A DNA stretch of 63,885 nt, filler included, from Reclinomonas americana ATCC 50394 (Eukaryota), in the NCBI GenBank assembly GCA_048213135.1. It is 6 parts of 3 records of this genome, joined end to end, with 100 filler letters (N's around TTAATTAATTAA, not from the genome) between each part and the next. Parts side by side here need not be neighbours in the genome. Positions count along the whole stretch, not along the records: positions 28,532 to 36,292 come from PS015502.1; positions 36,393 to 51,011 come from PS015502.1; 4 more parts are not named here. The stretch is one strand, 5' to 3'. Each line of letters starts with the position of its first letter. Position 1 is the first letter of the stretch. Below the pieces are notes generated by a model, which was not told the DNA's origin, did not search any database, and saw only the letters and a list, made by a program, of their open reading frames with translations. The translations under genes were made by a program, and so were the position numbers. Positions 2,056 through 55,392 of the stretch are shown here, one piece after another.

Positions 2056-2884
2056 ATGACGACGAAGCTGTCGGGCTCGTCCGCTCGGTACAAGCTGCTG
2101 GTGCAGCTGCTCTCTGGTCACTCCAGGTGAAGAGGAAAAGGCAGAAGAAAGTGTGAGGGCTGTGATCGGCGTGGAGATGGCTCCTGTCTCCCCCGCCTCC
2201 CGTCTCTCACACACTCAGAGAGACACGCACTCTTTCTCTTGTAGTTGTTGCTGTTGTCTGTGTTGTTGTTGTCTGTGTTGACTGGGAAGAGGGGTGGGCG
2301 CGCGGAAAAAGGAGATGTCGCGCTTGTGTGGGTGTTGCCTCTCTCTCTCTCCACCACTCGTGCACGCAAACAGAGAGACAGAGAGATAAGAGTGTGAGAG
2401 AGAGAGAAAGAAAGAAAGAGAGATGTATCGCAATGTTATATCTGATTTGTGTCATTTTGGACGACGCTCTTCCTTCTCACTCTCTCTCTCTCTCTCTGTG
2501 TGTGCAGGTACGCCAAGGCGATTGCGGAGAGTTGCAAACCCAGTGAGCACGATGGACTTGCGCATGCACTGGTGGCAACCACATCGGGAGTCGGAGGCAC
2601 TTTGGCCATTATTCGCGACATTCTCGCACTCGAGTTTGAGAAGAAGGTGCATGCGCCGCACACCATCCTGCGAGTCAACTCTATTGCCTCAAAGATCCTT
2701 GGCTTGTACACTCGTTGCGTCTGTCTCTCCCACTCTTTCTCTCTATTGAGCATCCCTGTCATGACTCCTCACTCCTCCTCTGCAACAGGTAAGCTCGGCC
2801 TCGTCTACCTCAAGGACTGCATCGGTGCGCCGATTGTGGAGCTGTGTGAGCTCAAGGACTTTAGCATGGAAGTGGATCCCGAGT

Positions 2885-2923
<39 letters not shown>

Positions 2924-4137
2924 CCTCCTGCCTCCCTCTCTCGCCCTTGCTTGGCTCATGCGCGCGATCGTGCAGCAAACTCGGTGGCGACACGGAACTG
3001 GCCGCCCGCAACACGGAGGAGCTGACGCGCTGGTGCCAGCTGCTACTCGACGCCATTATCGATGAGACGAGGCGGAAGGAGATGCCGCGCGAGATTAGGG
3101 CGCTGGCGTTTTACATTCTCGACTTGGGCGAGAAGCACCGCTTGTCGGAGAAACCCGGCTGCTCGGTGGTGACGCTGATTGGTGGATTCATTATGCTGCG
3201 CTTCTTTTGCCCGGCCATCACGCTGCCGTCGTCGTATGGCATCCTGCCGGAGGACAAGTTGCCGACACCGGGTGTGCGACGCAATCTCACGCTGATCACC
3301 AAAGTGTTGCAGGTGTGTCTGTGTATGCTCATTGACTCGCCTCTCCTCTCTTCGGTGATTCACAACGATTGTGCCGCAGAAAATGTCCAACGGTGAGACG
3401 TTTGACGATGCGGAACCGTACCTCAAGCCCATGAACAAGTTCATCCGTCGCAATGCCATGCGGTTGAACAACTACCTCGTGAAGATCTGCGAAGATCCGC
3501 TCGGATCTGGTGAGTGACATCGTGCACATTCTCGCGTATTCCCACGCTCACTCACTCACTTCCTCCTCTTCCCTCTTCTTCTCTCCTCTGTCAGGCTTGG
3601 CGGAGCCATTTGCCGATGTCGACCCGCCCGTGTCGTTTGAGGTGTTGCATTTCAAGGAGTTCGACATGAAGGATCTCATCTTTATCCACCGCGTGCTCGA
3701 CCGGTGTGCAAAGGAAATCATTGTGCGTGTACAGTCGTATTCTCTAGAGGCCACTGGCGAAGGTGCGCTTTTGTGTGTTTTCTGCTTCTGCCCTCGGATG
3801 GTGTGTAATTAATTGGTGATGTTGGCTTGCAGCGGCGCGCGGGTTCTTGTCGTCGGATGCCGATTTTGTGAAGTTGATTGGCGACCTCGGCCCACCGCCA
3901 CCAACCAAGAGGCGCGGCACGACGGCGGGCGAAACAGAGGGTGGTGACGATGATGGTGCCGGTGGGAGTGGCGTGTCGGCGGAGGACCGCACACTCGACC
4001 TGGTGGACATTGGCTTGCGGAACCTGCTGGAGAACTCCGACAAGTTCGACACGTCGGTGCTGGAGGCTGCTCGCTTTTTCTATCGTCGCGGCGCCTCCAA
4101 GCTCGGTGTGCCGGTGTTCTACTTGATTATGCACAGG
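2056..4137 (+). CDS. Neurofibromin-like RasGAP (RasGAP domain then start of Sec14/CRAL-TRIO); multi-exon, 3' end in gap
   Basis: ILRVNSIASK (arginine finger), GGFIMLRFFCPAI (FLR motif), RRNLTLITKVLQ and EPYLKPMNKFI. FFYRRGASKLGVPVFYLI matches the NF1 Sec14 start. GT-AG introns restore the frame. Confidence 0.88.
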
Positions 4138-11981: not shown

Positions 11982-12084
11982 NNNNNNNNNNNNNNNNNNN
12001 NNNNNNNNNNNNNNNNNNNNNNNNNTTAATTAATTAANNNNNNNNNNNNNNNNNNNNNNNNNNNNNNNNNNNNNNNNNNNNCTA

Positions 12085-25500: not shown

Positions 25501-28431
25501 TGTAGATACCGCCAGAGTTGCACGAGAGACTGAACCGAGCAGAGTCGTCTCGGTCGGCACTGGCACAGGTTGCCGTGCGAACGCCAAACAGTACGGGCTT
25601 CACATCCCACTTGACACGCGGGATCACGTGCGACTCGGTGCAGCCTTCGGTGGCCAAGGCTGACTCCATGGCCTCCAGCGGCGCAATAGCCCAGTTCAGT
25701 CGGAACGCTGGGCACGACTCCCACGCCGGAGCTGCGATAACCACAAACCGGGGTGAGCTCACCTCGCACAGTCGCCGCCAACACGACAAATAAACATTTG
25801 GCACACGCAACTGGCATCGACCTCCTCAGCCAACTGGAACGTGAACGACAGGAAGTACTCGCCCGGCTCCAGATCCAGGTTCATGGGCGAACCTTCGGTC
25901 GCCGGCTTGTCATCGCCGGCACGATAGAGAGAGACACGACCAGTGATGTACTCCTGCATCTCGAGCATGACGCCGTCGGCCTTCTCGATGGTCAGTCGCA
26001 TAAGCGAGCGGCGCGTGACCTTGAAGCGCACGGCCTGCGACGTGGCCGAGAAGTCGGCGTGGTAGTCGCCCGACACGTGCAGCGTGCCCGTGGCCTCGTC
26101 CAAGTAGCCAGCAGTGTTGGCAGTCGGCGGCAAAAACTCCACGGTTGGATCGCACAAGTGATGCGGCATCTGTCGCATGACCTCATCGACAGACGTGCCC
26201 GTCGACGGCTCCGATGGTTCCTTGGGCGTCGGTGCAGAGTCGGTGGAATCATAGTCCTCCGTGTCCGACGTTGGCGTTGTCGGCTCAATCTCTCCCACCG
26301 GTGCCAGAGAGAACGTCAAATCCATGACCAGACAAGACACGGAAGACGCTGCCCGTGTGTCCGTCAGGTCGTAGCCCCACAGCGTGTACATGCCCGGCGA
26401 CAGGAAGCGGTCAATGTCTTGCCGGTTGGTGTGGGAGACGCCGAGAATGCAACTGCGTGCACTGGGGTCCTTGCTGTTGTACCCGCCCTCTGAGATGGCA
26501 GCCAGACACCCACGCCGGTTGCCACCAACCTCCACCGCCAACACCACATGACCCGCCACAAATCGATGCCCGAGTACGGCACGCATGGTGAGCGGTCGGT
26601 TCATCACCTGGAAGTTGAAGGAGAACAGCTCGCGGTCGAGCTCCGTGTGGCGCTCCAGATGCATGACCTTGTGCTCCAGCAGCAGACTGCCATCCACCGG
26701 GAACCACGATGTGGGAGGGACTGGGAACTTGATTGGGTGCTTCTTGAACGCACTGCACATTTTCTGTGCACATTTTCAAGACCATGAGCATGAGCGCGCA
26801 TGAGTCATTCAATCCAACATGGCAAGAGAGACGCACCTCCACCGCTGGGACCTCCTCCGTCTTGAAGTGATCCAGAGGCTCCACCTGGATCTCCATGTTC
26901 AGCAGCACGCATCCGGCATGGTGCGTCGAGCCAGGAGTGCTGACGACATCGATTTCCACGGCGTACATGTGGCCGCTCAGCACCTGACTGGAGAGGATTT
27001 TAAGACCAGACACCAGCTGCAAGGCACTGTGATCCTCCGGTGCCTCCGGCTCCTTGGACGGCTTGCCAATCCACACTGTTGTCACGTCGCGCAACTGAAC
27101 ACGCAACGCTTCAATCGGCGCACCCAACGTGTGCACCGACAAGCGGAACAAGGAGTCGCTGCGGGCGGTGAACGAGATAGAATGCCAATGCTGCAGCGTT
27201 GCTTTCCACCGCGACGACACTCCCGGCCTGTGCGACGCAAAAGACAGGCAATTCAACAGGGGAGCGAGAGAGAAAGAGAGAGAGTGTGTGTGTGTGTGTC
27301 ATTGGCCAGCCACTCACCGATTCGTGTCACTGGCGTCGAGTCCGGATTCGACCTCTCCAGCCACGCCATCGTCGGTCTCGTCCACACGATCGGCGAGCCA
27401 ATCCTCGCCCTCCTCTTCGCCGTCGAGCTCTTCGCCCACCGGTGCACTGTCGGTGCCACCAGACGGCGGTCGAAGAGAGCTGGGTGGAATGTACTCGGAG
27501 GTGGCGGCCAGACCGTACGTGTCCGCCACATGGAACCACGCCGTGCGGCCAAACCCGAGCGATTCCAGCGTCAACGGCGGCGGTTCGGTGTGCGACGGAC
27601 ACACGTGTTTCACCGCCGACTCCTCGGCTTCGCTGTCGCCGGTGCGCTGACACACTGGGTACTCACCAAAGTAGCCATTCTCCTCGTCGCACGAGTCACA
27701 CATGCGATGAATCGACGTGTAGCCGGGCAGACACTCGCAGATGGGGTAACCGAGATCGTCAGTGCAGGTGCCGTAGCCACTGCAGCTCTGCTCTGCGCAT
27801 TTGTGATCCATGACGCACAGGGCCGAGTGCGGGAAGTGGTGGTAGCCATCCACACACAGTTCGCACAGAGCGCCCGTGTACGGATGAACGCACTGGCATT
27901 GGCCAGTCGACGCATTGCATGTTCCGTGGCCACTGCAGTCGCACGTGGCGCCCGTCAAAAACACATGATCCATGCGATACACGTCGTCGGACACAACAAA
28001 GGGAAGCGACGGTTCACGAGCTGTCCGCAGACGGCTGATTCGCAGCTTGACCACGTATTTCTGTGCAGAGCGAACAAACAAAAAATATCGTGAGTGCACG
28101 GGAGCGTCGCTGAGCACGACCCACTCTCGATACCGGCACCTTTTTCGGCTCAAAGTCGGCACTGTTGAACGCCAGAATCACTTGCGTGTTGTGACCGCGT
28201 CCGTAGAAAAACGCGGCCCGTGGCAGCACGCTCTTCTTCTCGCGACAGCTCGGGCACATGAGCTCGACCACACGCTCGTCGACAAACATGTCCAGCAACG
28301 ATTTCGGTGCCGACGGCGTCTGCACAGCTGCAGCGCGACGAAATGTAAACAATCAGATATCTCACGCCCCATCCACAACAATGAACAGCAGGTGCGTGGT
28401 ACCTTCGGAAAAGGTGAACGTCATCGAAAAT
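22504..28431 (-). CDS. Upstream exons of the giant EGF/beta-rich surface protein; 5' end lost at linker
   Basis: Laminin/EGF repeats CSGHGTCNASTGQCQCVHPYTGALCELC and CSGYGTC...CECLPGY, plus many beta-rich exons bounded by GT-AG. Confidence 0.78.
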
Positions 28432-28531
28432 NNNNNNNNNNNNNNNNNNNNNNNNNNNNNNNNNNNNNNNNNNNNTTAATTAATTAANNNNNNNNNNNNN
28501 NNNNNNNNNNNNNNNNNNNNNNNNNNNNNNN

Positions 28532-32958: not shown

Positions 32959-34871
32959 TTACACCGACGACTTGGCCGTGCGGAAGCCGACATCGGATTG
33001 CGTCTGTGTATGCAGTCGTGTCAGCATGGTGCGTAATCGTCGTGGAACAACAAGGGGCAGTCGACGCAACTCCCTCCTCGTCGTTCGAGGCGTGTGGTTG
33101 CGGCTCATCGTCGGTCGCGGCCTTGTTCTGCATTCGTGAACACGGGTGAGCATCTCCCATCGCTACAGCTGCATACAAATGCACAACGAGAGACCTTGCA
33201 GCCGACAACCAACTGGAAGACACCGTTGACAACAAGCAGAATGCCGGCAATGAACTGCAGCAAGTGCGAAGGTCCTGGACGAGCGGGGCAACGAGGCGTG
33301 AACATCAGACGCGTGGGAGGGGGGAGGAGAGCGACGATGGTGACTCACCCCACGACGCGGCCAGTGTGCCGATGAAGATGTAGAAGTAGCCACGACCTGG
33401 ATAATCACGTTAGAGAGGGATGGAGAAAGAGGCGAGGGAGGGAAGGAGAAGGGAAGGCAAGGAGAACACGAAATGCAAGGACGAGATGTACGAGAAATAA
33501 GCTCCACATAAAGAGACGGAAGAGGCAGGGACTTACAGGAAGAGATGGGAGGGCGGAAGACGAAGGAGAGAGCGAGAACAAGAAATGCAAGTCAACAGGA
33601 GCGAGAGATCCCACGGAAAGAGAAGCATGGCGAGGTGTATGAGAGTCAAGCTGTGTAGAGAGAGAGAGTCAGAGGTACCCACAGATAGAGAGAACGGGAA
33701 GGAGTGAGCAACGAGAACGAGAGACGGAAAGACAGAAATGCAAGGACGATGCCGTGGAAAGAGAATGCTGGAAGTGACAATGAGAGACATCCTGCGTAGA
33801 AAGGGAGACTGGGAGAGATGGAAGCGAAAGAAGAGAACGGGCTGGAGTGAACGGGAACGAGAGACGGAAAGATAGAAATGCAAGGACGAGATGCAGTGGA
33901 AAGAGAATGCTGGAAGTGATAAATGAGAGACAACCTGCGTAGAAAGTGAGTGGGAGTGATGGAACCGTAAACAGAGAACGGGAAGGAGTGAGCAACGAGA
34001 ACGAGAGAAAGTCACGGGGAGCGAGAAAAAGAGAGACCGAGAGCGAGAAAGACAAGGCTCCATCGTACGCAAATACAGACAGAGAGGAGACTAGACCGTA
34101 GGAAGAGAAGAAAGAGAGAGTGAGGGAAGGAGACAGAGCGAAGAGGGCGAAGACAAGTCCCAAAGAGCGCGCTCATTTCATGCATGCTCCTCCTTTCTCA
34201 CCCGTGTTGGTCTCCATGAAAGCAAATCGCCTGAAGATGAAGCGGCACTTCAACTCGGACACTACACACACGCACACACACACATGAGCACACACGCAGA
34301 GGAACACACACACAAAGACGAAAAACACACGCAACCAAATCCAATAAACGCGAATGCACTGCGCAGCAAGCAAACTCAGTCAGCCAGTCACGAGAGCGAA
34401 CGCAGACACAGCGTGTGCAAAGAGCGATACGCAACATGAGGTAGATGGAGAGCACCTGCAAGAAGTGCATCAGTGAGCAAGAGACAGTCACACATAAAGA
34501 CAACACGCGCACACACTCACCAGCTCAAACAAGTTGAAGGAGACAATGACACCGAGCAACGAGAAGACGCCGACCACGGCCAGACCAAGGCAGCATGCGA
34601 GGCCGACAATCTGCACACACACAGATAGAGAGAGAGAGTGTCAGAGTGCGCGCATTTGAGTGAATCTCTTGTGTGTGTGCGTGTAACACGTGGAACAGCA
34701 ATGAACACAGCACGACACTGCGCTGTGTGTTTGCTCTCATTGTGCGCTCGTGCGTGTGCGTGTGTGTGTGCTCAACACAAAGTCATCGACATGGCGGCAG
34801 ACACACTCTCTCTCTCTGTGTCTGTGTCCGCGTGTGCGACTTACCCGTGAGATGCGCTCCAGCTTGGTCAT
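32959..34871 (-). CDS. TVP15/COPI-associated Golgi membrane protein; start uncertain
   Basis: TM exons IVGLACCLGLAVVGVFSLL, VLSIYL, VSELKCRFIFRRFAFMETNT|GRGYFYIFIGTL and FIAGILLVVNGVFQL. Confidence 0.75.
33690..34010. repeat. About 2.3 copies of a ~140-bp tandem unit inside an ~800-bp intron
   Basis: gagaacggg...gaacgagagacggaaaga(c/t)agaaatgcaaggacga...gtggaaagagaatgctggaagtga...cctgcgtagaaag is repeated. Confidence 0.75.
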
Positions 34872-35164
34872 GCCCTGTGTGGGCGCGGCTTGCAACTGCG
34901 ACTGCATTTTGCTTGTCTTTTGTGACGACAACAGAATGGATTGAGAGTGAGAGGACAAACGGTACAATGCTCACATTGTGAGCGCAACTTCGTTGTTTTT
35001 GCTCGTGCTGCTGCTGCCTGGCGCGCTATTCTTGTCTGCATCAGTGTGCACGGGGAAAGCGATCCTCGAATTGAATTGCAGAAGCGTGTTTTGGTTCATT
35101 TTGTTCCGCTCAAAGCCCAGCCTGGCGTGCATGCATTGTTGTTGTTGTTGTTTTTTGTTGTTGC

Positions 35165-37755
35165 TTACGGGCTGAGGCGCAGTGGGGTGCGCGGGAACAT
35201 GGACGTCTTCTTCACGTTCATCACACCCACAATGAAGCCGGTCAGGCGCTCGAGTCCGAGGCCGAGACCAGCGTGCGGCCAGCCGCCTGCGGACAAGTGA
35301 TTAGTGACAAATGTGACAAGCAGATCGGTGGGCATCATATTGCGACACGCACCGTAGCGCGTTGAGTCAATGTACGCACGCAAGGGGTCCGGGTTCACGC
35401 CGCGAGCACGCAGCCGCTCAATGAGCAGCTCTGGCTCGTGGACGCGCTGTGCGCCAGAGGCGATCTCTTGGCCACGCAGCATGAAATCGTACGAGTTGGA
35501 GTAGTTCTGTGAAGCACGGGCCATTAGCATCTTCTTCTCCTTTTCCTCCTCCTCCGCAAGCAGTGGGGTGAACTCACCGGGTCCTCGGGGCACGGCATGG
35601 TGTAGAACGGACGTGCCGCGAGCGGATACTTATGCAGAATGTAAAAATCGGTGTCGTACTTTTCGCGCACCAACTCGCCCAGCTTCTTCTCCTGCGGCGT
35701 ACTGCACGCAAGAAAGAATTCAGCAATGAGCACTCACCACCAGCAACATCCACTTTCCAGTCAACATGCAAAATACGCAACGACAAATCGCCATTCGGGT
35801 CGGCATCGGCAACGCCGGCCTCCTGCAGCATGCGAATGCCCTCGCGGAAGTCCAGTCGCAGGTTCGGTCCGTCGCGGTTGTACTTCAGTGGCTCACCACC
35901 GTACTGCGCACGGATCGAGGCCAACTCTGCCGGGAAGCGCTCCTCCACCTACGCCCAACCAACAAATGTGGTGAGTGCAAGAGAGCGAGTGACACACAAA
36001 CACTGGTCCACAACAAAGTACCTTGTTGAAAATGTACACGAGGAGAGCGTCGAGCACGTCGAGTGCCTCAAAGTAGTGCTCGTGAATGGTCATTTCAACG
36101 TCGAGACCAATGAACTCGGTCAAGTGTCGTGGCGTGTTGCTGTTCTCGGCACGGAACACTGGCGCCACCTCGAACACACGCATCAAGTCACCCTCCACGG
36201 CCATTTCCTTGTACAGCTGCGGTGACTGTGCCAAGAATGCCTCGCCTGCACATCAACGCCACTGGCGTCAGATACGTCCATTATACATGCAGNNNNNNNN
36301 NNNNNNNNNNNNNNNNNNNNNNNNNNNNNNNNNNNNTTAATTAATTAANNNNNNNNNNNNNNNNNNNNNNNNNNNNNNNNNNNNNNNNNNNNCAGCACAC
36401 GCACCTTCAAAGTACTTGACGCGGAACACCTCAGCACCGCCCTCACTGGCACCGCCAATGATCTTCGGGGTGTGAATCTCCACAAAGTCCTGCGCACAAA
36501 GGAACTCGCGGAAAGCCTGGCCAACACCGCTCTGGATGCGGAACATGGCCACGTGTGCGGGCACACGGAGATCGAGCACACGCTGGTCGAGGCGTGTGTC
36601 CGGGTCCACACGGGGTGCATCCTGTTCCACCGGAAATGAGCGACAGTGTGTGCGCGCACACACACACACACACTCCGCAGCAAGTTAGGAGCGCACGAAC
36701 CGCAAGTGCAGCAGCACTGCCGGAACCAGAGCCATCCTCCGGCGCCTCCGGCCTTGAGGCATCCTCGATGCCGAGTGGCAGCACTGGCTCCGAGGCACTC
36801 ACCAAGTACAGATTCAACACCGCCAGCTCCACGTCGCCCTGCGTGGCCGACTCCACCTTGGCCTTGGCCAACACACCCACCACATCGACAATTGATTCGC
36901 GTGCGAGACTGCAAGCGAGCGCGGAGTGAGTCATCATCATGTCGCCACCACTCGAGGTGAATGTCGCACGAACCCAGCAGCAAACTTGATCATCTCCTTG
37001 GTCGTGTTGTTCTCACCGATAAACATGCACGCCTGCAACGAGTACATGCCGTGGCGGAGCACAAGGAAGCAGCCCTTGGCTGGTGGCAGACAATGGAGAG
37101 AGAGAGAGAATATTCCTCAAAAACCATGATCCACAATCATCGAGTGACACACGAGGCACGCGTACCTTGTGCACGCGAGTTGTGAATGCGAGCGCGCACC
37201 GTCACTTGCATGCCGGCCTTGTCGCCATTCAAATCCTTGATGGGAGTCCACACACGGTTTGTGCGTATCTGCGACTGCAGACGCGGATATATGCCGTACG
37301 GTGCCGAACCCGACACAATCTCGGCAAACTCGAGCACGCGACCCTGAAAGCGCCTGGATCAGTCAACCCATCGTCGTCACATGCACACATATCACTGCTT
37401 GTATACCTTGGTCGCTGCTGCTGCCGCAGCAGCAGCGGCATCAGCCTGACGCTTGCGCTCCTCCTTGCTCAGCTGTAATCATTATCGGAAAAAAAGTGTC
37501 GGTCATTGCACCTCCCACACCAGTCACACATCGCCACACCAGCATACCTTAGGAGCCTTCTCCTGACAATCGCACACACACACACACACGCACCAGTGAG
37601 CACCATCGCAAGAAGGGGAGCAGTCTCACATGACCACACACCTTGCCGCCCTTCTTGCCCTTGCCCTCACCACCCTCGCTCGATGCCGCCGCTCCTCCTG
37701 CAGCAGCAGCAGGGGCAGCCGGCGGTGCCTTGTTGCCCTTCTTGCCCTGGCCAGC
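35165..37755 (-). CDS. DARS: Cytosolic aspartyl-tRNA synthetase, continuous across the linker at 36337
   Basis: OB fold [121 protein letters not shown] and [12 protein letters not shown]. Confidence 0.96.
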
Positions 37756-37908
37756 CTGAACGACACGCAGTCAGACACACGCACACACACGCACACACAC
37801 ACACACACGAGAGAGAGAGAGAGTGTGTGAGAGAGAGACAAACAAGTGTATCCTTCTCGCTGTCGTCGGAAGACAAGGGAAGTCATCGGGACAGCGAAGA
37901 GAACGAAC

Positions 37909-38601
37909 CGAAGGCTGCTCGTCGTTGACCGACAAGTTTAGAGCCTCCACAGAAACACCGGCGAGTGCGAGCAAATCGGTGGCCTCACCACGCGAAACAA
38001 TCCTGTTCAGCGTTGAGTTATAATGGTTTTTCACGGCGTTTGCAGTGCGCCCGGGCAGAGCCTTCGCAATCCTGTACACAGTTACAAACAAAGAAGAATT
38101 GGGCAACAAGATTAGCATCGGAGACCTTGCGGTCGCCGACATCGCACGAAAGACGAAAACGCAACTCTGCCCAGCCACGTCCACTTGAGGCAACCATCTG
38201 CAAGATTTTCACGTTTTCCTCCGTCGACCACTCTTCGTGAGAAATGCTCGGATCCAATTGGTTGACATAGTGCTCTCGAACAGACTTGGCGGTGCGGTCC
38301 GGACCCATGCGGCTCGCAATGCCTTGTTCAACACATGCTACCATAAGCACAAGTTGCGGACAGCATGTGACACTCGGCAAGCCGTTCCTCACCTTTCCAA
38401 TCACGAGCACCATACTCGCTAACCAGCGATCGCAGCAACTCATTCTCTTCCTCCGTCCACTTCTTGTGCGCTGTGCAGGCGGTGAGCTCATCAGTCATTT
38501 CACTGTGCACTTAGGCCAAAAATACCTTGCCGTTCTCTTTTGATCTCCTGCGACGATGCAGCAGACGCACCCGAGTCACCCCCAATCAGACCACGCGGCA
38601 T
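37909..38601 (-). CDS. R2R3 Myb DNA-binding domain exons, apparently the N-terminus of the AspRS gene; may extend 5' of 38601
   Basis: KKWTEEENELLRSLVSEYGARDWK|GIASRMGPDRTAKSVREHYVNQLDPSISHEEWSTEENVKILQM...WAE|IAKALPGRTANAVKNHYNSTLNR. Confidence 0.92.
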
Positions 38602-39275
38602 GGTAAACCGCAGAGCAATGCTGGCGTACTCCTCGGCAAGTGCCGCAGCCACCGATGCCGGACCACTCTGCACTCGCAAAGACAAGTCGTGAGCATTTGA
38701 TCGATTGCTGATGGCGATACGCACACACGCATGTGATGTGTGTATGTGTGTGTATGTGCGTGTGCGAGGAAGAGAAGAGGGGGGCGGGGGGTGCACAAAA
38801 GGTCATGTTTGACAACATGCATGACGCGCAAAAACAAACACAAAGAGGACACAAGACTTTGAGAGGCCGAAAAATCGGTGCCCCGTGCAACGTACACATT
38901 GAGGCAGAGACACACAAACACAAAAACGAACCGGCTTTCCGCTCATATCTTCACAGTGTAGATAAGGATTCGATGATGACAAAGAGACATTTGTGCTCGC
39001 GNNNNNNNNNNNNNNNNNNNNNNNNNNNNNNNNNNNNNNNNNNNNNNNNNNNNNNNNNNNNNNNNNNNNNNNNNNNNNNNNNNNNNNNNNNNNNNNNNNN
39101 NNNNNNNNNNNNNNNNNNNNNNNNNNNNNNNNNNNNNNNNNNNNNNNNNNNNNNNNNNNNNNNNTCCCGCGCCCAATCAACGCAAACCCATCGGCCCCGC
39201 GCACGGCAAGGCAAACAGCAATCAAAAAGTGTGTGTGAGAGAAAGAGTGGTGTCTGTTTAGTGTGTGCGCGCTCC

Positions 39276-42200
39276 ATGGACGAAGTGGTGTTGTTGGTGT
39301 ACGAGTACTTGTCTGCGCGACGATGTGTGGACGCGGCATCGGCGTTTCTGCGGGAGACTGGGCATGATCGACGCGCAGTGGAGACTGCGTTGCGAGAGAG
39401 ACGAGTTGCGTGCTTCTCTCCTCCTCCTCCACTCCTCCTCTGTGGCGGCGGTGGTGGTGGTGGTGGTGGTGGTGGTGAAGAGTTGCTCATCGCAGTTGTC
39501 TGTCATGTCAGAATCTGCGACCGCCGCTGGTGACGCTGGTGGCGCGCTTCTTTGAGATGCGGCGTGAGCGCTCAGAGGCTGATGCGTTTGCGGTGGCGCT
39601 GCATCGCTTGTGCCAACCGGCGTCGCAGTCGACGTCGTCCACTGCTGCTGCTGCTGCTGCGGCTACTGCGGCTGCGGAGAGTGCTGCCGCTCGCTCGGCC
39701 ACCGTGCAGACGGCTGCTGTGGAGGCGCTGACTCGCTTGTCGACGGTGGTGGACGAGTTCCAGGCGCTGCGCAAGCTGTTTGTGCAGCAGTCGGTGTTGC
39801 GTCTTGTCGTGGTTGTCATGTGGAAGAAGGAGAAGAGTTGGGCGACTCATGATGATGATGATGACAGTGGTGTTGCGTCTGATTCAAGTTCGACGGCATC
39901 CAGTACGCGGTGAGTTCGTGTGCAGCTTCAATGACACCGGCAGACAACTCACTTGCAGAATCCCTGTTTGTTAGTGGCAACTCTGGTGCATCGTCGCGCA
40001 GCGCGGCTCGGTGTGTGTCGTGCGATTGTCTCTTCGTGGACGCGTCTGCTGTCGCTCACTGAATGGGTGATTGTTGCGATGCAGCGGAAACAACACAGGT
40101 GGAACCACCGTCACCATACAGACGTCGGGATCATCATCGTTGCGCTCTTGTCGACTGATTTTCGACCAGTGCGTCGCAACAGTTGCTCATCTCCATATCC
40201 CTTGTGTTTGTTTAACCAGTGCACCGTCTAGCGTGCGGCATACGCAGTTGCGCAACAGTACGAGTGTCTACTGCTGCACGCTTTTGTGATTCTCACGTGA
40301 TGTTGTGCAGATTGTTGCCACGAACGCCGTCCACTCCATCGTCGCTGTTGCGTTTTTCCCAGTCTCCCCTTACACAAGCCAATTTATGTATCTCTGCTGA
40401 CGTGACTCTTTGCTTGTGCGACGCAGAATCAACGATGGATACGCAACAACGTGCGTCTTGTCGATTCCCAGCTCGATTTTCACCGAATGCTGTACTCAAA
40501 TCGTTGCGCAGTCCGCTGAGTGCCACCCCATCGGGATCAGCTCGATCCTTCCCGCCTCCACCACCGCCGCCACCACCGCCGCCACCACCGCCACCATTCA
40601 TGTTCGGTAATGATCCGCTGGTGACGCTGCCATTGCCAGATCACATGTGCGTCGACGAGGTCGTCTCATGTCGCCCGTGCGGTCCGCTCACTCGCGACTG
40701 TAATTGTGTGCAGTCGCTCGATCGCCAACATGCAACAAAACAGTGTCTCAATGAGGTTTTGCACGCTTGCCCACCGTGTCTGTCACCAACTCATCCGCTC
40801 TGCTGACCTCTCACCGCTCACAGTTTTTCAAGCACACCGCTTCCACCACCCCCACCACTGCCCATGTCATTGTCGCAAACGTACGCTTGTTTCGACCGCG
40901 TCGAGTCTTGCGTGGACATTGTTGTGTGGCTCACTGGTCTGTTCGTTATTAGGTCATCACCGGCTCTTCGAAACACACCACTTTCGTTGCGTCTCATCAC
41001 GTTCATGTTGTACGCGCGTCTCTGTCTTCTCACTTCTTCTTGTGATTTGTCGCGCAGAACACCCCCACCAAGCTCAATGCCCGTGGTGTACACACCACTG
41101 CCGTCACCACACGCGAGGTGTGTGAAGTGCCATGCTTGCTGTTATTCACCCTCGTCACTCAATTGCGCTGTTGTCTGAGTGCAGTCAGTTTGGTCCGGGT
41201 ACCAGTGACACGCCGACCTCGCGGTCAGTGCCTGCGACTCCTCCTGCTGGGTGCGTCGTGTGCAACGTGCGCGTGATGTCATACCTCGGTGATGTTATTA
41301 ACACACTGGTGGCATCGCAGTCTCCCATTGCCACCACCACTCCCACCACCACCGTCAACCATGTGTTCGTTGCCACTGCCGCCACCACTGCTTCCGCCAC
41401 CGCCACCGCCGCCGCCCTCGTCGTTTTCCCCACCAGCGGTCACCTTGTTTCGTACCTTCCACCCCCCTGGCACACTTTCATTCTTTCATCTTGCTCACCT
41501 ATCCACACTCGCAGTACGGCGGAGATGCCGGCATCGACTACCACATTGGTGACGACCTCATCGACGACCATCGATGGCTCCATTTTGATTCGCGAGAGCA
41601 GGTGCGTGCGCCCTCCTGTTGTTGTTGCCGTCCCCTTTCTGACATTCGCACGTTTCCCCTCCAGTTCGATCACTGTGACCAACGAGACTCCAAGGTACAG
41701 CCAGCTGCTCAACATGCATCGTGACTCACAAGAATCACTCACCTTCTCGTTGCAGGGAGACGGAAGAGAGCAGTCGTGCAGCCGCGCAGGCGGAAGCAGA
41801 TCGGTTTGTGTTGTCTCGGGAGCTCGTTGAGAGGGGATCAGTCTCCTTGCTCACGTGTTCTGTCGCAGATTGTTGCAGCAGCGGCGGCAAGCAGCGGCTC
41901 CCGTTCGACCAATGGTGGGACGCACAGCGAGGTGTGTGTTGCCGTGTCGCCCCCCGTCATTGCACTGTGCACGGAGGCTAATACATGTCTGCAGCCGACC
42001 TCTGTCAGCCACAGCAGGATCAACGACAACTACAACGACAACTGTTACCCAGCCGAGGTAATTCGCTCTTCACCAGTGTTCGACTGCTGCGGCCCGTCAC
42101 TCACTTGCACACGAACTAGCGGCGAGGCACATCTATCTTCCCAACACGAGTCGCCGCCACCACCACCACCATCGCAGCAGCGACACCCCACGCCGTTTGA

Positions 42201-44434: not shown

Positions 44435-46168
44435 TCAATAAACAGTGCGCTGACCGACAATCCACTTGACGGCGGCCGACATGCGCTCCGCTGCGGCTCG
44501 CATCTCCACGTGAGTCAGCGGGTGGTGCGTCACCACTCGGAATGCTCTGGTGCTGCCGCCGAGCGGGCTGATCAGAACTCCAACTGCAGCCGAGGCCCGT
44601 GCCAGTTCGTCGACCGAGAACGGTGCCTGGGGAGGGAGGGAGGGAGGGAGAGAGGACAGAAGCTGCTTCAGCTCATGCACACAAACTGTGCACTGCAACT
44701 GTGCATTGCTGTTAAAACGCAACAGCATCTGCCACTCGGAAAAACACAATGTTGGTGGGTACACCACCGGCTGTTGGCAGCAATGCATCGTGAGTTGCAT
44801 GTGAGCTCACCAGAGAGAGAGAGAGACGTGCATGGACAACTCACGTGGAATGTGCTCCAGGAAGGGAATCATGGTCAGTAGCTTGGTCAACAGACGAGCA
44901 TTCTCGTGATCCTCCTCCAGCCTCCACGTCTGCGAGAGCACATGCACTGGTTGAGAAGGCACGGTCACAGATAGCCACGACGCCGCAGTGGATCCAAACC
45001 ATTTGTCGCAAAGCCAGCAAACCGGCAGCAGCCAGGATGCCGGCCTGTCGCATGCCACCACCGAGCGACTTGCGCACACGCCGCGCCTCGTAGATGAAGT
45101 CACGCGAGCCGACCACCACAGATCCCACAGGCGCACAGAGGCCTTTGGAGAGACACAAAGACACCGAGTCGGCACCGGCGGCCACCACATGCACCGGCAG
45201 ACCTGCAAAAAAACACGATGAATCAATAAAGTGTTGCAACAGTCCTCCTGCGCCCAGCGACCACGCACGAAGTGCGACAGCTGCGTTGAAGATGCGAGCG
45301 CCATCAATGTGGAACTTGAGTTGGTACTTTCGACACAGCTTCGCCACCTCCGCCGTGTACTCCACCGGCACCGCGACGCCACCGACGCCGGCCTGCAGAA
45401 TCGAGTCCGTGAGCCCATCATTCCGCTCCCCATTTCCCCCCGTGCGCCCGACGCAACATGCGTGGTCTCGACTGTCACCAACGACGTGCGTGGACAGTGC
45501 GGATCGTCGTCACGGATCGCTTCGACAATGTCGGGCAGTGGCATCGTTCCGTCACGTCGCACGTCAATCGGCCACGGATGCACACTGTGCGCCACCAGTC
45601 ACCTACACAGCGAGAAACACACTGCAGCATTCCATGGCACCGAAGAAACGCACCCGCCAAAGGCCGCAGCACTGCCGCCTTCCCATCGATAGATGTGCGA
45701 CTGCCGACCGACAATCATCTCATCGCCACGTCGACAGTGCGCCAGCACAGAACACACGTTTCCCATGGTCCCCGAGGGCACAAACAGACCAGCCTCCTTT
45801 CCCAGCATCTCCGCCGCTGCAATTGCACGCGTCAGCGACGCACGCAGACGGCGATCGGAATGCAGAATTTACCGAGAGCCTCCAACTCATTCACCGTGGG
45901 ATCCTCGCCGTACACATCATCGCCTGACACACACACACACACACACACACACACTGAGAGTCTGACTCACTGTGCTCACTCACTCGCACAAGCAGCGCGC
46001 ACCCACAGCTGCTGCGGCCATTGCACGTCGCATCTCCACCGTCGGCACAGTCACCGTGTCACTGCGCAAGTCAATGATACTATTGGCAACACTGCTGCTG
46101 CTGCCACCTGCCGCAGTGGCAGCTGTGTACTGCCACCGGCGACCACACACTCTCCACAGAGACAACAT
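44435..46168 (-). CDS. GLY1: Low-specificity L-threonine aldolase with presequence-like N-terminus
   Basis: [55 protein letters not shown] (PLP Lys) and GGGMRQAG. Confidence 0.93.
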
Positions 46169-46217
46169 CGCAGTCACTGTGTCCTGCGCGTGCGTGTGTG
46201 TCAGTGAGTGAGTGGCA

Positions 46218-49200
46218 ATGAGCGCAAGTGAAGCCGGTCCCTCTGTGCTGCCAGTGGAGCAGCACATGGACGAGGTGTTGGCCTCGGTGCGTGCGCGACG
46301 AGTGACGTGCATTCGAGGCGAGACTGGTTGCGGCAAGTCGTCGGTGGTGCCGCGACTCTTGTTGCAAGACTGGGATGCTGGTGTGCGCGCGCTTGCGAGT
46401 CTCCACTGTGGTGCCAGTAGAATGACATTGTGTGGAACAGGTGGCAATCGTCGTCGTGCCAACATCATCGTGACACAGCCGCGACGCATGGCTGCGGTGT
46501 CGTTGGCGCGACGAGTGGCTTCGCAGCTGGGCGAGGAGATTGGAGAGCGAGTTGCGCGTTGTGCGAATTGAGGGAAGGAAGGGAGTTGTCTCCTCTCTGA
46601 GCGTTTTCTCGGCAGGTTGGCTATTGCATCTCGCGCGAACGCGAGGTGGGCGAGCGCACGCAGCTTACGTTTGCCACTGTGGGCTGGTTCCTCCAGTTCC
46701 TCAGCCACCAGCCGCGCAATGTCGACAACTATACGCATGTGGTGTTGGACGAGGTCCACGAACGCGACTGCGATGCCGATCTGCTCAGTATGTTGTTGAA
46801 GGTCCGTCGGTGTTTTGCGTGTGTGTCTGTGTGATGGTGGCGCCGACTGACTGCATTGTGATGCGTGCCAGGTGTTGTTGCAGGAGCACAAGAAGGTCAA
46901 GCTGATCATCATGTCGGCCACGCTGCAGGGCGACCTGTTTTCGCAGTACTTTGCCGAGCTAAATGCGGACGGTGAGAGCGAAAGAGTTGAAGGGAAGCGA
47001 TGCGCGGTGTGCATTGTCTGTGCTGACAGCTGGGCACACCACACGCACATGCACACAGGGAAACCATCGCCGGCAGTGTTTGTCGGCGTGCAGCGGTACC
47101 CGGTGCAGGAGTTGTTTGTGGAGGATTTGGCGGGTGTGATCCCGCGCTTTGGTGGTCAGGGTCGTCGACTCGCACAGAATGTAGGCGACATGTTTAGTGG
47201 AGGCCGGGCACCCGCAGGCGCCGAAACCGCAGTCTCTGCTGCTGCTGCTGCTTCTGCCGCCGGCTCATCATCCCGAGTGGTCTGTGCAGTGCTTGCTGAG
47301 TGATTCGTTGCACTCAGCCTCCACCTTCTCATCATTTGGCGCAGCGAGCCGACATTTTCCCTGCCACGTACCAGTTGGCGGTGCACACGATTGCGTGCGT
47401 GTCGCAGTCACAGACCAGCATTTTGGTGTTTCTTCCCGGTTCCGCAGAGATCCTGCAGCTGCAGACGGCACTAGAGGACTCGTTTGTGGGACTCTATGTG
47501 TCGGAGACGGGCGTGCAGTTGGAGGTGATTGCGACTCGCAGTGTGGAGTGCACACTGTGCAATAACTAAACTCGTGTTTCGCAGCTGCTGGTGCTACATT
47601 CGATGGTCTCCCGCGAGGACCAGGATCGTGCATTCGAGGAGGTTCCTGCCGGCTGCTGCAAAGTCATCCTGGCCACCAACATTGCCGAGAGCAGCATCAC
47701 CCTTCCCGACGTCAGCTACGTTCTTGATTTTGGCTTGCATCGACACGTCGTGGTGAGTGTGTGGACAGTCGGCGCCCTCAGCTCTCACCAGGCTCGTGAG
47801 CTCACGCTCCACTCCACAGGTGGATCGCGAGAGGAAACACATGGCATGCTTGGTGAGCCGGCTTCCTTTCGCACATCATTTGTCACCCGTAGTCGCTCAC
47901 TTAGTAGTGGTGCAGATCAAAACCTGGTGCAGTCGCGCATCCATGACGCAACGCAAGGGTCGTACTGGTCGACTGGCACCCGGTTCCTGTGTGCGCTTCA
48001 TGACGCGGCAGTTTTTCGAGGAGTGCCTCACAGATTTTGACACGTTGTGTATTTCGCGCACCGCGCTGCCCATCGCGCCATCCACCGTGCATCTCACAGT
48101 TGGCCACGCAGTGCGGAGATGATTCGAGTGCCACTGCAGCAGATTGTGCTGCGCGTGATGCTGCTGTTCCGAGCATTCGGCTCGCTCAAGTCGCTGCTTG
48201 CGCAAACGGTGGAGAGCCCACTGCCAGAGGATGTCGATTTTGCGCTGCGCGAGTTGTACCACGAGGGGGCCATCACGTCGGCCACCGAGGAGGCGCGAGT
48301 GACGTTGCGTATTATGCCGCATGCTCGCAGTCACTTTCTCTCTCTCTCTTTCTCACTGGTGGTGCAGTGTGTTGGGCGAACTGGCGGCGCGCTTGCCAGT
48401 GGATTTGCAATTGTCGAAACTCGTTCTGCTTGGTCTCGCCATGGGCTGCGAGTGCGATGCGGTGCGTTTTCACTGGCTGGCGCGCACGTCTGAATCCACC
48501 ACTGGATACTCACTCGTGTGCTTGTGCGTAGCTGTGCATGGCCGCCGCACTGGCGTCGCAGGATTTGTTTCTGCAGCCATCGGCCCATTTCCTGGACCCG
48601 TACTCGCTGGCGCGGGAGATGGAGGCCAATCTGAAGAGTCGGATGCGATTCGACGGAGGCGTGTACAGCGAGGTGCAGTGCTCGTTGTAATGTGTTGGCC
48701 ACGCATGTTGATACGACCCTCTATAACTTGGAGGCCTCGCAGCCCATCATGTACCGCAACTTGTTGCGTTCATGGCTCGCCTCACCACGCAGTCGTGCTT
48801 GGGCTCGCGACCGTTCCGTGTCGTTTGAGCGCATCAGCAACTGTCACTCTCTGGTGGCCGACATGGCCAACACACTCCTCACGTTCCTTCGAGAGCAACT
48901 ACGGTCGGCGTCCGCCAGTGCCGCGTCTGCATCCTTCGAGATGTTGGAAGTGCTGTCCAAGCCGCCTCGTCGCAGCGGCGGCGGCGGTGGTGGCGGTGGT
49001 GGTGGCGGTGGAGGCGACAGTGACAGGCCGGCCACAAAGTTGACCTTCCAGAACAATCCGATGGTGTTGCAGTTGCTGCTGGCCAGTGCCTTTTCGCCGT
49101 TTTTCGTGCACGGCAGAGTGCGCCGAGATGCAAAACTGGAGCGACTGGTGCGCGCGCGCGTGTGTGTGTGTGCCCCTCTCGCGTCGCCCTTTGATGAATT

Positions 49201-51000: not shown

Positions 51001-51111
51001 TGCATGCGTGCNNNNNNNNNNNNNNNNNNNNNNNNNNNNNNNNNNNNNNNNNNNNTTAATTAATTAANNNNNNNNNNNNNNNNNNNNNNNNNNNNNNNNN
51101 NNNNNNNNNNN

Positions 51112-51419: not shown

Positions 51420-52765
51420 ATGCTCCGTGGTGGAGGCGGCAGTGTGCAGGAACGCACACCGGTGAGCCTCTCTCTCTCTCTCTCTCTGTGCTCCCATCTC
51501 GCTCTTCTCACGTGATCACACAGCTGCTGTCCCCGGCCCTCATTCGCGATCGTGGCGGCCTGTGCTCGGATGTATGCACAGTCGTTTTGTGGATCTGCAG
51601 CCTGCTGTCGCTGCTGTGCATGTGGCCGTGTCAGGTGAGTGTGTCATGCATGTGCGGAGGCACCGCAGCAGTGCAGTGACCACACAGAATGCACAGATCC
51701 GCATGGTCCGCGAGTACGAGCGTGCTGTCTTGTTCCGCCTCGGCCGACTTGTGGGGTCTGTCTCTGGGGGAAACAGGATGTGCCTCTGCTTACTCCTCAA
51801 TCTCCTCTCACTGGGAGCTCGCAGTGCCAAAGGGCCCGGACTGATCCTCGTGATGCCGTGCCTTGACAAGTGTCGTGCGTTGTCTCGTTTGTCCCTCCCT
51901 CTCCTCCCCTCCTCCCGTGGCACTCACTCATGCACACACACGCAGTGATTGTGGATCTGCGTCTGGTGCGTGCGTAGATCAAGTGTGCGCTGTGCAGGAA
52001 CGCCACTCTCACTCGCGTCCACGACAGGTGAGTCTCACCATTGCGCACCAAGAGGGCATCACCAAGGACAACGTGTCGGTGCGAGTGGACGCGGTGGTGA
52101 TGCACTACGTGGCCAACCCCATCAAGTCCGTCATGGCGGTCGAGAATGCCTCGGTGGCCACCGATCTGCTGGCGCAGACCACGCTGCGCAGCGTCGTCGG
52201 CCAGTCGGAGCTCGACGAGATTCTCGCTCATCGCGACGCCATCAACGCGCAGGTGAGGGGCCAAGGATCGGGGCACGCCCATGTTCATGTGGTTGACGTG
52301 CTCTTGCATGTAGCTGCAAAGAATACTGGACGAGGAGAGCGAGCCGTGGGGCGTGCGGGTGACTGCAGTGGAGATCCGAGATCTGCAGGTCCCTCAAAAC
52401 ATGGTGCGTTCACTGGCCTCGCAGGCCGAGGCGGAACGTCATCGGCGAGCGCGAATCATCAGCGCCGACGCCGAGTTGCAGGTGAGAGGGAGCGTTGATC
52501 ACTCCTGAGGCGCACGCTCGATTACTGAGCGTTGTGTGTGTGGCAGGCGGCACCGAGGCTTCGCGAAGCTGCCGACATTCTCGCCATGACACCTGGCGCC
52601 ACGGATCTCCGCCTCCTGCAGACCTTGGCGCAAGTGGGCGAGGAGCGCAGCAGAGTCAACGTGATTCCACTGGTAGGCCAGAGTTCGTTGTGCTCTCTCT
52701 TCAAATGCTCACTTGTGCGTTGCACGCAGCCACTGGAATTCGCAACCATGCTTGCCGCAAGTTAA
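51420..52765 (+). CDS. Stomatin (SPFH/band 7) paralogue A
   Basis: REYERAVLFRLGR, KGPGL, ITKDNVSVRVDAVV, LAQTTLRSVVG, PWGVRVTAVEIRD, QAEAERHRRARII and LRLLQTL. Confidence 0.93.
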
Positions 52766-52892: not shown

Positions 52893-54760
52893 TCACAAAT
52901 TAACTTGACGAGGACCGTGCATCATCGCACCAGCCGCCGCACTGTGTCCGTGCCCACCGGCCGTGGCACCGCCACTCAGCATCGGCGTGCCGCCAGGAAT
53001 CAACGCCGAGAGCTGCACCGGAAGCGGGAACCAAATGGTGCTGGGGCCTGCGTATGTGGATGCAAAGTGAGCGAATCAGCTCGCGCAGCCTCTTGTGCGC
53101 TCTCTTCTCTCTCGAGTCTCGATGTGTTCTCTCGTTCTCTGTCTCCCAGGCAAGTGTGCACATTACTCTTCTCTTTGTTGCACACCCTCACATACACTCT
53201 CCCACTGCTTTGTTGCACATGTTATTCACAGACTGTGCACCTCGCAATCTGCTCTCCTCTCTCTTCTCACGAGCGCCTCGTGCGCACAACACCGGTTAAT
53301 CTCTCTCTCTCTCTGTATGACTCCGCAGTCGCACTTCCCACTCCCCTCTCCCCTTCTCTCTTCAAAACAACACACGCACCATCAGTGGCAATCTCCGACA
53401 CCGTCTGCATGTAGCGCAGCTGCATTGCCGCTGGATTTCCGCTCATCACCTCAGCCGCCTCGCGAACTGTTTTTTTTCACAGGTATCAGCATTAGCCTTC
53501 TCTCTCTCTCAAGCATCACCAACGAGGCAACGCAACTGCGTGTGGCCGCCTGATACTCGCCGTCGGCATTGACGACCTTGGCACGGCGATCACGCTCGGC
53601 CTCGGCCTGGCTGGCCATGGCACGCTGCAAGCTTTGCGGCAATACCACATCCTTCACCTCCACGCCCGTGATGCGCACACCCCAGTCGGCCGAGTCCTTG
53701 TCGAGAATGTCGCGAATCTTGGTGTTGATCACGTCGCGCTGCGACAGCAGCACGTCGAGCTCCACCTGGCCAATGACCGAACGCAGGGTGGTCTGTGCGA
53801 TCAGCTGCGTGGCGCGATCGTAGCCGTTGACGTTGCAGATCTGCGAGGGGCGCAAGGGTGGGTGATGGGACGGAGGAGGGAGAGTGGGGAAGGGGAAGGG
53901 GGAAGGGGGAAGGGAGAAGAGAAAAGGTTCTTCAGCAGCAAGAGAGGCAAAGAGAAGGGGAACAAAGTCGCCGAGATTCGAGATCTTGCAAACGATGAGA
54001 GTGAATCAAGAAGAGAGCGAAACAAAGAAATGGGAATGAGAGCACACAAAGCCGCTCTGATTCGAGCATTCGCACACCAGCGATGAGTGTGAACAGAAGA
54101 TGAGGAAAACCAAAGAAACAAAACAGATTTCCTTAAGTTCTCCTGCTCGAAGAAAGCAAAAAAACATACGAATAGAATGAGAGCACACGAGGCCGCTTTG
54201 TATCGAGTTCTTGTGCAGCAGCGATCAGTGTGAACAAAGAAAAAGTGGTGCGGGAAATGGAGAGGAACAAGAAGCAATTCGGTCTTCAGAAGAGGATAGA
54301 AAAGGCTTTGAGAACGGAAAAGGAACGTGTTACGAGTGGTGAAGGGAAAGAGTGCACTTCTCCGCCAGTTCAACGCACCGCCTGCTCCGGGTTGACGACC
54401 TTGTAGAAGACGACAGCATCGACCTGCACCAGCACACTATCGCGGGTCATGGACTCCTGGTTCGGCACACGGAACGAGCGCGTGCGCAGGTCCACCACAA
54501 CTACACAACGCGGAGGTGAGCAGGCTTCATGGCGTCGACCGCGGCACAGAGACAGAAGCGCAACTCATGGAATCAATGCACGGCAGCAGCACAAACAGTC
54601 CGGGTCCCTTGCAGCCGAGGAAGCGTCCAAAGCGGAAAATCACACCGCGCTCGTACTCGGATACGACGCGGATGAAGCACGGCCACAGGCACAGGAACCA
54701 CATGAAGCTCATCATGTACAGGCAGCACGTGCAGAAAGCAGTGCAGCAGCCGGCGGGCTG
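52893..54760 (-). CDS. Stomatin (SPFH/band 7) paralogue B; first exon(s) beyond the gap
   Basis: EYERGVIFRFGR, KGPGLF, MTRDSVLVQVDAVVFYKV, IAQTTLRSVIG, LQRAMASQAEAERDRRAKVV, AMQLRYMQT and STIWFPLP. Confidence 0.93.
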
Positions 54761-55392
54761 TCGCACGAGGGAGAAGGGAGGAGGGTGTAAGGGGAAGGCG
54801 GAGGGAGAAGCGGATACAGGGACGGGAATGAGGAGGGGAGAGAGAGCTGGAGAGAAGAGAACGAAGGGATGGGACGACGGGAGAAAGGATGCTGGAAAGA
54901 CAGAGAATGTAGACGGAGGACTGGCGAGAGAAAAGGGATGAGATGGAAGGCGAGACGTGAGAAAGAAGCAGTGGGTAGAACGAAGAGAGAGAGAGAGAAG
55001 GGGAGAGAGGGAGAAGGAGAGCAGGAGAGGAGGGAGAGATGGGAAGAACGAGAGAGGACGGAGAGAGTGAACAGATGGTAGAACCGAGAGAGGACGGAGA
55101 GAGTGAACAGATGGTCGGAACGGGGGAGAGAGAGGGGGAGTGCAAGGGACTGACAATGAATGGATGAGAAGGGCTTGATGGAAGGAGAGAGACAGGAACG
55201 GAGAGATAGAGGACGGAGAGAGTGAACAGGTGCTCGGAACGGAGAGAGAGAGAGGGAGAGAGAGAGGGAGTGCAAGGGACTGAGAATGAATGNNNNNNNN
55301 NNNNNNNNNNNNNNNNNNNNNNNNNNNNNNNNNNNNTTAATTAATTAANNNNNNNNNNNNNNNNNNNNNNNNNNNNNNNNNNNNNNNNNNNN

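Follow-up and report, generated by a model that had tools for sequence, protein, structure and literature searches.

A small Myb gene and a cytosolic aspartyl-tRNA synthetase gene in Reclinomonas americana as a candidate conjoined locus

Layout of the Locus

The locus described here lies on a 63,885-nt stretch of DNA (referred to as the window) from Reclinomonas americana ATCC 50394 (GenBank assembly GCA_048213135.1). On the minus strand of this window, a small Myb DNA-binding gene is located directly 5′ of the gene for a cytosolic aspartyl-tRNA synthetase (AspRS). As read and translated from the sequence, the locus comprises 16 exons, with four belonging to Myb, three to a lysine-rich N-terminal extension and nine to the AspRS core, and all of its introns are of the GT-AG type. 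In-silico splicing of these exons results in an open reading frame (ORF) that is uninterrupted over 2,169 nt and encodes 722 amino acids. All positions are those of the window, the features of the locus are on the minus strand, and exons and introns are numbered through the joined locus.

A first interpretation of this DNA, made without database searches and termed the sequence-only reading below, described the two parts as an in-frame fusion with no N gap between them. The absence of a gap is borne out, as the junction of Myb and AspRS lies within a single gap-free contig (36393–39001). The nearest gaps are at 36293–36392, within AspRS intron 11, and at 39002–39164, 5′ of Myb. The first of these is an artificial 100-nt spacer, in which a 12-nt six-frame stop linker is flanked by 44 N on either side. 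It hides no coding sequence, with the flanking exons being collinear with those of homologs.

The Myb Gene

The Myb ORF is distributed over four exons between the ATG at 38601 and position 37909 and encodes 158 amino acids. Exon 1 (38526–38601) starts with this ATG, in the context accATGc, and ends at the donor AAG/GTATTT; its frame stays open upstream as far as a TGA at 38805–38803. The first half of repeat R2 resides in exon 2 (38393–38470), which matches Pfam PF00249 at E=7.7e-7 over profile positions 2–24 of 46. Exon 3 (38166–38322) holds the end of R2 and the start of R3 and matches both PF13921 (E=1.3e-8) and PF00249 (E=2.5e-7). Exon 4 (37909–38071) completes R3 and adds a 31-amino acid tail ending in EQPS. 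The PF00249 match of this last exon (E=1.1e-4) represents half a domain, profile positions 26–45 of 46, and its 22.7 bits fall below the cutoff of 24.4. No ATG occurs in exon 4 in any frame.

Two tandem Myb repeats are recognised by PF00249 and PF13921 across exons 2 to 4, with exon 4 below the cutoff as described, and the protein is of the R2R3 type. Exon 3 matches PDB entries for SNAPC4 (E=4.5e-11), Trichomonas MYB21 (4.2e-8) and c-Myb (2.4e-6), while a search of the ESM Atlas with the same exon returned generic Myb clusters only. The two tandem repeats are thus the point of likeness to the R2R3 Myb domains of c-Myb, of Trichomonas MYB21 and Myb3, and of the SNAPC4 repeats. Compared with known R2R3 Myb proteins, the protein in the window is just 158 amino acids long and is without a recognisable activation or partner domain.

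A candidate mini-exon of five codons, MSGKP, is located further upstream at 38932–38946. It is followed at 38931 by the phase-0 donor CCG/GTTCGT (6.2 bits), the hexamer of which is the same as that of three other introns of the locus. The mini-exon is in frame with the acceptors at 38667 (4.73 bits), 38547 (7.41 bits) and 37755 (6.21 bits), and from its sequence it could be the first exon of either Myb or AspRS. As it is in frame with the 5′ extension of the Myb ORF, the ATG at 38601 may not be the true start of Myb.

The AspRS Gene

The AspRS core is encoded by nine exons between 37343 and 35165, delineated by translation and by tblastn with homologs, and its 499 amino acids end at a TAA at 35167–35165. 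The first five of these exons lie at 37343–37166, 37079–36974, 36908–36701, 36621–36405 and 36245–36022, and the remaining four at 35948–35782, 35701–35578, 35506–35353 and 35286–35165. Over the full length (~490–570 amino acids), the protein shares 52–56% identity with cytosolic AspRS of eukaryotes.

Family membership was assessed at the level of single exons or by alignment, and exon-level scores cannot reach full-length cutoffs. The class II core of the D, K and N synthetases (PF00152) is recognised on four of the nine core exons, at profile positions 2–64, 74–142, 220–272 and 277–307. Exons 8 to 10 have no Pfam match as single exons, and the putative OB-fold region aligns colinearly with that of homologs that carry PF01336. 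The best NCBIfam models on three exons are those for aspartate, TIGR00458/PRK05159, with E values of 1e-12 to 1e-27. Models of AsnRS and LysRS score ~11–15 orders of magnitude worse on two of these three exons and do not match the third, and the enzyme is assigned to aspartate on this basis.

The core is preceded by three exons, all of phase 0-0, which together encode a Gly/Ala/Lys-rich stretch of 65 amino acids that runs into GRVLEF at 37343. Exon 5 (37642–37755) encodes 38 Gly/Ala/Lys-rich amino acids with the motifs GKKGNK and GKKGGK and aligns with the lysine-rich N-extension of homolog P0025. It is followed by a 15-nt microexon, EKAPK (37548–37562), flanked by cag on the 5′ side and by the donor GTATGC. 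Exon 7 (37407–37472) encodes 22 amino acids, beginning LSKEERKRQ, of a lysine-rich helix. This helix aligns with the lysine-rich helices of 21 homologs, in which the initiating Met is found a few dozen residues before the helix. On the strength of this alignment, exons 5 to 7 are taken to be the tRNA-binding N-extension that is usual in eukaryotic AspRS. A role of lysine-rich extensions in helping tRNA binding is reported in PMC8319005.

The gene shares with eukaryotic cytosolic class IIb AspRS the class II core and the lysine-rich helix, together with a putative OB-fold anticodon-binding region. It differs from them in that the extension has no ATG in its own exon, and in that an in-frame Myb ORF lies one intron upstream. 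Exon 5 is without an ATG and only five codons are open before its acceptor, which means that splicing to an exon further upstream is required.

The Junction between Myb and AspRS

The two parts are separated by 153 nt (37756–37908), which can be read as a putative intron 4. This interval includes a GTTCGT donor, a branch-point-like CTGAC motif, a (CT)n(GT)n microsatellite and a ttcag acceptor. The donor TCG/GTTCGT (GT at 37908–37907) follows the last Myb exon at 37909 and is of phase 0, as is the acceptor ttcag/GCT, from which exon 5 starts at 37755. On translation, both sites agree with the sequence-only reading, in which Myb leads through this acceptor towards GRVLEF, and all other coordinates and frames given there are likewise correct.

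Splice sites were scored with donor and acceptor weight matrices built on the other 14 introns of the locus. The donor at 37908 scores 6.43 bits, ninth among the 15 donors of the locus, and no other GT from 37935 to 37786 scores higher. It shares its hexamer with the donors of AspRS introns 9 and 10, which are verified by homology. The acceptor at 37755 scores 6.21 bits and ranks 11th of 15, and the 37908/37755 pair constitutes the best-scoring splice path in the interval. Across the window, 155 of 117,866 positions carry a donor of at least 6.4 bits, as does one of 2,025 positions within the exons of the locus. At this frequency, a strong in-phase donor within ~77 codons after the Myb domain would be expected by chance in ~4–10% of cases.

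With A at 10.5% and T at 36.6%, the interval resembles an intron in composition (the other 14 introns have 17.8% and 31.4%) and is unlike the A-rich spacer 3′ of AspRS. Base composition was given little weight as a discriminator, as a second downstream 3′ region is T/C-rich by eye. Microsatellites similar to that of intron 4 also occur in other introns of the locus. The interval contains 17 copies of an AC/GT repeat (37775–37808), and 366 GTGTGT hexamers were counted in the window. A de novo harvest of introns across the window gave 502 candidates, mostly of the microsatellite GTGTGT kind; this was too noisy and was not used.

In the unspliced state, the Myb frame continues for 45 codons through the (CT)n/(GT)n repeats up to a TGA at 37773–37771, which would give a stand-alone Myb of 203 amino acids. 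Entry of this frame into the microsatellite had been described in the sequence-only reading.

A Shared Transcript as the Favoured Reading

The favoured reading is that of a conjoined Myb-AspRS locus, in which transcription from the Myb promoter would run through both units. Splicing would then take out the interval 37908–37756 like any other intron, and at least one mRNA isoform would encode a chimera of 722 amino acids, consisting of the R2R3 Myb (158 amino acids), a flexible lysine-rich linker of ~65 amino acids and a complete class IIb AspRS. The Myb part would be an N-terminal add-on, and the AspRS part would act as a standard cytosolic class IIb synthetase.

In favour of this reading are the features of the junction described above, the need of exon 5 for an upstream partner and the N-terminal domains that AspRS homologs tolerate. 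With separate genes, moreover, an overlap on the same strand would be needed, since the Myb frame is open to 37771 and the nearest ATG for AspRS is at 37886. The only clear tandem spacer nearby, that 3′ of AspRS, measures 258 nt (35164–34907). In view of this spacer and of the overlap required otherwise, the simplest reading is one transcript for both units, spliced from 37908 to 37755. Use of this splice and translation of the chimera are plausible, and from the sequence the chance that a fused mRNA isoform exists is put at about even.

Similar arrangements have been described in other settings. Conjoined or read-through genes and merged models of tandem genes likewise involve unrelated neighbours on the same strand, a splice that skips the upstream stop and differing codon usage in the two parts. 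In the classic merged-model artefact, the upstream stop comes first and the downstream ATG after it, whereas here the ATG at 37886 lies 115 nt before the stop at 37771. Synthetases with appended WHEP, GST-like or EMAPII domains also resemble the locus in that an extra N-terminal module is attached through a flexible linker. Those architectures recur across many species, while the Myb-AspRS combination was seen in none of the homologs examined.

Points against a Fused Product

Several lines of evidence weigh against the fusion, and the first of these comes from homologs. Of 99 AspRS homologs retrieved with the most conserved exon, none has PF00249, and the same holds for the best 120 of 7,713 profile matches. 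A further comparison covered the 150 best representatives at 50% clustering. All 11 with an N-terminal overhang of at least 100 amino acids were scanned, together with four more, and Myb was absent from all 15 of these long-N-terminus representatives. The Myb-AspRS architecture is therefore not conserved among the homologs examined. The closest overall homolog, P0025 (52% identity), is 591 amino acids long, is found on 2.35-kb contigs and is unfused. In addition, the N-termini of the homologs begin at about exon 5, and AspRS looks complete without Myb except for its Met. The absence of Myb elsewhere is nonetheless weak evidence, because the databases hold no close relative (best overall identity 56%). 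A literature search for a fusion of Myb with aspartyl-tRNA synthetase, or for such appended domains, returned nothing relevant at the level of titles and abstracts.

The AspRS homologs do tolerate appended N-terminal domains, among them WHEP (PF00458) and GST_C. On the 15 representatives, GST_C was found on three, WHEP, thymidylate kinase, ankyrin and RING domains on one each, a C-terminal LPG_synthase_C on one and a FAR1 domain, below threshold, on one. The N-terminal thymidylate kinase, ankyrin repeats and RING finger belong to P0254, P0318 and P0334. These one-off domains represent either lineage-specific fusions or merged models of neighbouring genes. Chimeric-looking AspRS models are not rare in databases, and as the one-off cases may be merged models, the prior for an artefact in the present case is raised.

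Two further searches were made with exon 8 (59 amino acids). A protein search gave 12 candidates, none of them significant. A scan of metagenomes gave one locus, L001, with an unrelated AspRS (54% identity over 28 residues), and is uninformative. The AspRS of L001 (2118–3512) and that of P0260 each have a long C-terminal extension, which is LPG_synthase_C-like in P0260 and is unrelated to the Myb finding. Both presumably resemble the fungal AspRS-DUF2156 ergosteryl-aspartate synthase.

The second line of evidence concerns the start of AspRS. It had been argued in the sequence-only reading that AspRS has no independent start, since the only ATG in the interval lacks a phase-compatible donor. 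The ATG at 37884–37886 (context cccgATGa, poor) is indeed the sole ATG in the 153 nt. Phase-0 GTs do, however, exist downstream of it, at 37874, 37808, 37802, 37796 and 37790. The donor scores are −5.81 bits at 37874, 1.91 at 37808 (which would leave a 53-nt intron), 1.14 at 37802 and 2.49 at 37790. Each of these GTs is either a weak site or part of the microsatellite; their scores span −5.8 to 2.5 bits, compared with 6.4 at 37908. A second candidate route starts from the mini-exon at 38946–38932 and passes over all the Myb exons to 37755, with an intron of 1,176 nt. A third starts at an ATG inside intron 5 (37604–37606), which is followed by the phase-0 donor GTGCTC (5.3 bits); the candidate join is to exon 7 at 37472, through an intron of 131 nt, and exon 5 is skipped. 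There are thus at least three phase-compatible candidate routes to an independent start, and the claim that AspRS has none is insecure.

Two other possibilities for the start were set aside. A CUG at 37770, just past the TGA, is in poor context. Trans-splicing of a spliced leader at 37756 would require the leader to bring its own ATG, and no sign of this was found; Rfam and tRNA scans of the window gave no matches and no hint of a spliced-leader RNA.

Codon usage provides the third line of evidence. Lys, Glu and Gln codons end in A in 10 of 29 cases for Myb and in 8 of 94 for AspRS (Fisher p=0.0015), the latter made up of 0 of 19 for the N-extension and 8 of 75 for the core. For Lys alone, AAA is used at 4 of 8 codons in Myb and at 0 of 30 in AspRS (p=0.00095), and exon 5, like the core, has AAG for every Lys. 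The position of the break coincides exactly with putative intron 4, with the N-extension matching the core and not Myb. In codon usage, AspRS including the extension resembles a housekeeping gene under strong bias, which Myb does not. A single ORF that is equally translated throughout would not be expected to differ in this manner, so the break weighs against a long-standing single ORF. It agrees with separate genes, with a fusion isoform that is minor or facultative, or with a fusion of recent date, and does not fit an ancient obligate one.

Finally, the junction itself counts against the fusion. With 153 nt, intron 4 exceeds all other gap-free introns of the locus (14 in total, itself included), which measure 55–94 nt. 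The junction also coincides with a compound microsatellite, and the draft is broken by 23 gaps over 64 kb.

What survives of the proposed fusion is the in-frame splice path, which exists and scores best. The argument from a missing start does not stand, and the codon break and the lack of Myb in homologs speak against the rest. A real fusion would probably be of recent origin or facultative, and not an old, obligate arrangement. The stronger version, in which the organism's only cytosolic AspRS is always a Myb-AspRS chimera and Myb confers a sequence-specific nucleic-acid-binding or nuclear role, is quite improbable.

Alternative Explanations

The first alternative is that Myb and AspRS are two separate genes or separately translated products. 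Myb would then be a protein of 203 amino acids ending at the TGA at 37771 and AspRS would have its own start, with the fused frame being a coincidence or a minor read-through isoform. The codon break at the junction and the N-extension that behaves as the AspRS core are what this model would lead one to expect, as is the absence of a Myb fusion in every homolog examined. The start could be supplied by any of three phase-compatible routes: the ATG at 37886 with the (GT)n donor at 37808 (1.91 bits) or 37790, the mini-exon MSGKP (6.2 bits) joined to AGQGKK in exon 5, or the ATG at 37606 with its GTGCTC donor (5.3 bits) spliced to exon 7. With a short first exon spliced onto exon 5, the Met would also fall where AspRS homologs start.

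Each of these routes has a cost. With the ATG at 37886 or 37606, the Myb ORF or its 3′ end would overlap the 5′ end of AspRS on the same strand, which would put the poly(A) site of Myb within the transcription unit of AspRS. Downstream of 37886, the donors are weak or in the microsatellite, and the context of this ATG is poor, while the 37606 route loses exon 5, whose GKKG.K motifs match the N-extension of P0025. The mini-exon route calls for a 1,176-nt intron holding a same-strand gene, and an ATG with a GTTCGT in the 30 nt after it is not rare by chance (~15% per GTTCGT, an estimate). On balance, separate genes are a possible but somewhat doubtful explanation.

The second alternative is an assembly artefact. 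The contig 36393–39001 could be collapsed or chimeric at the (CT)n(GT)n repeat, with the real Myb 3′ exon and stop and the AspRS first exon missing or with the two halves not being neighbours at all, which would make the in-frame join a one-in-three coincidence. The draft is very fragmented (23 N gaps, 4,759 N in 63,885 nt and five artificial joins), and the junction carries a compound microsatellite with repeats of a class that is abundant in the window. An artefact would also account for the missing AspRS ATG and for the real-looking donor at the end of Myb. Nevertheless, the sequence gives no direct sign of a misjoin, both parts lie in one gap-free contig, and the interval resembles a single normal intron with donor, branch-point-like motif and acceptor. 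The artificial join in AspRS intron 11 is, moreover, collinear with homologs. An artefact of this kind is considered unlikely.

The third alternative, which goes back to the sequence-only reading, is a dual-function chimera in which Myb DNA binding couples aspartate or tRNA-Asp status to transcription. Moonlighting synthetases exist, and this idea can appeal to two domains that look intact (Pfam Myb on three exons and a complete AspRS core), but it is highly improbable, as it requires a real fusion, the architecture is not conserved among the homologs examined, and codon usage points to a difference between Myb and AspRS in translation or selection.

Neighbouring Genes and Assembly Context

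The 100-nt join within AspRS intron 11 is one of five identical joins in the window, each composed of 44 N, the 12-nt six-frame stop linker and 44 N (11982–12081, 28432–28531, 36293–36392, 51012–51111 and 55293–55392). These joins show that an external rule was used to concatenate contigs, and the order and orientation of adjacent contigs are therefore not guaranteed by the sequence.

A small gene follows 3′ of AspRS on the minus strand, with its ATG at 34906. By eye, the gene downstream of AspRS has introns of several hundred nucleotides. A tandem repeat at 33639–34008, with a unit of ~141–143 nt in 2.2–2.6 copies (80–85% matches), sits in an apparent long intron of this small gene. On the other side of the locus, an ORF on the plus strand (39276–39913, ATG at 39276) is divergent from and head-to-head with the Myb gene, at a distance of ~330–670 nt, N gap included. 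A LisH motif had been guessed in this ORF and was dropped in the absence of a Pfam match. Other long ORFs of the window encode a RasGAP, a laminin/teneurin-type EGF protein, a beta-eliminating lyase (threonine-aldolase-like) and two Band 7/SPFH proteins on opposite strands. The coordinates of these ORFs are 2446–3393 (+), 27317–28177 (−), 44810–47155 (−), 51854–52495 (+) and 53454–54005 (−).

Biological Meaning

Should the fusion not be real, the locus would illustrate that convincing chimeric models can arise in a fragmented draft from genes in tandem, exons of phase 0 and spacers rich in microsatellites. If the chimera is real, a Myb module would join the domains acquired by eukaryotic synthetases, and a housekeeping enzyme would be seen in the act of being captured by an adjacent transcription-factor gene. 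Were AspRS in this organism always chimeric, this would constitute a new kind of appended domain, one that links translation capacity to transcription.

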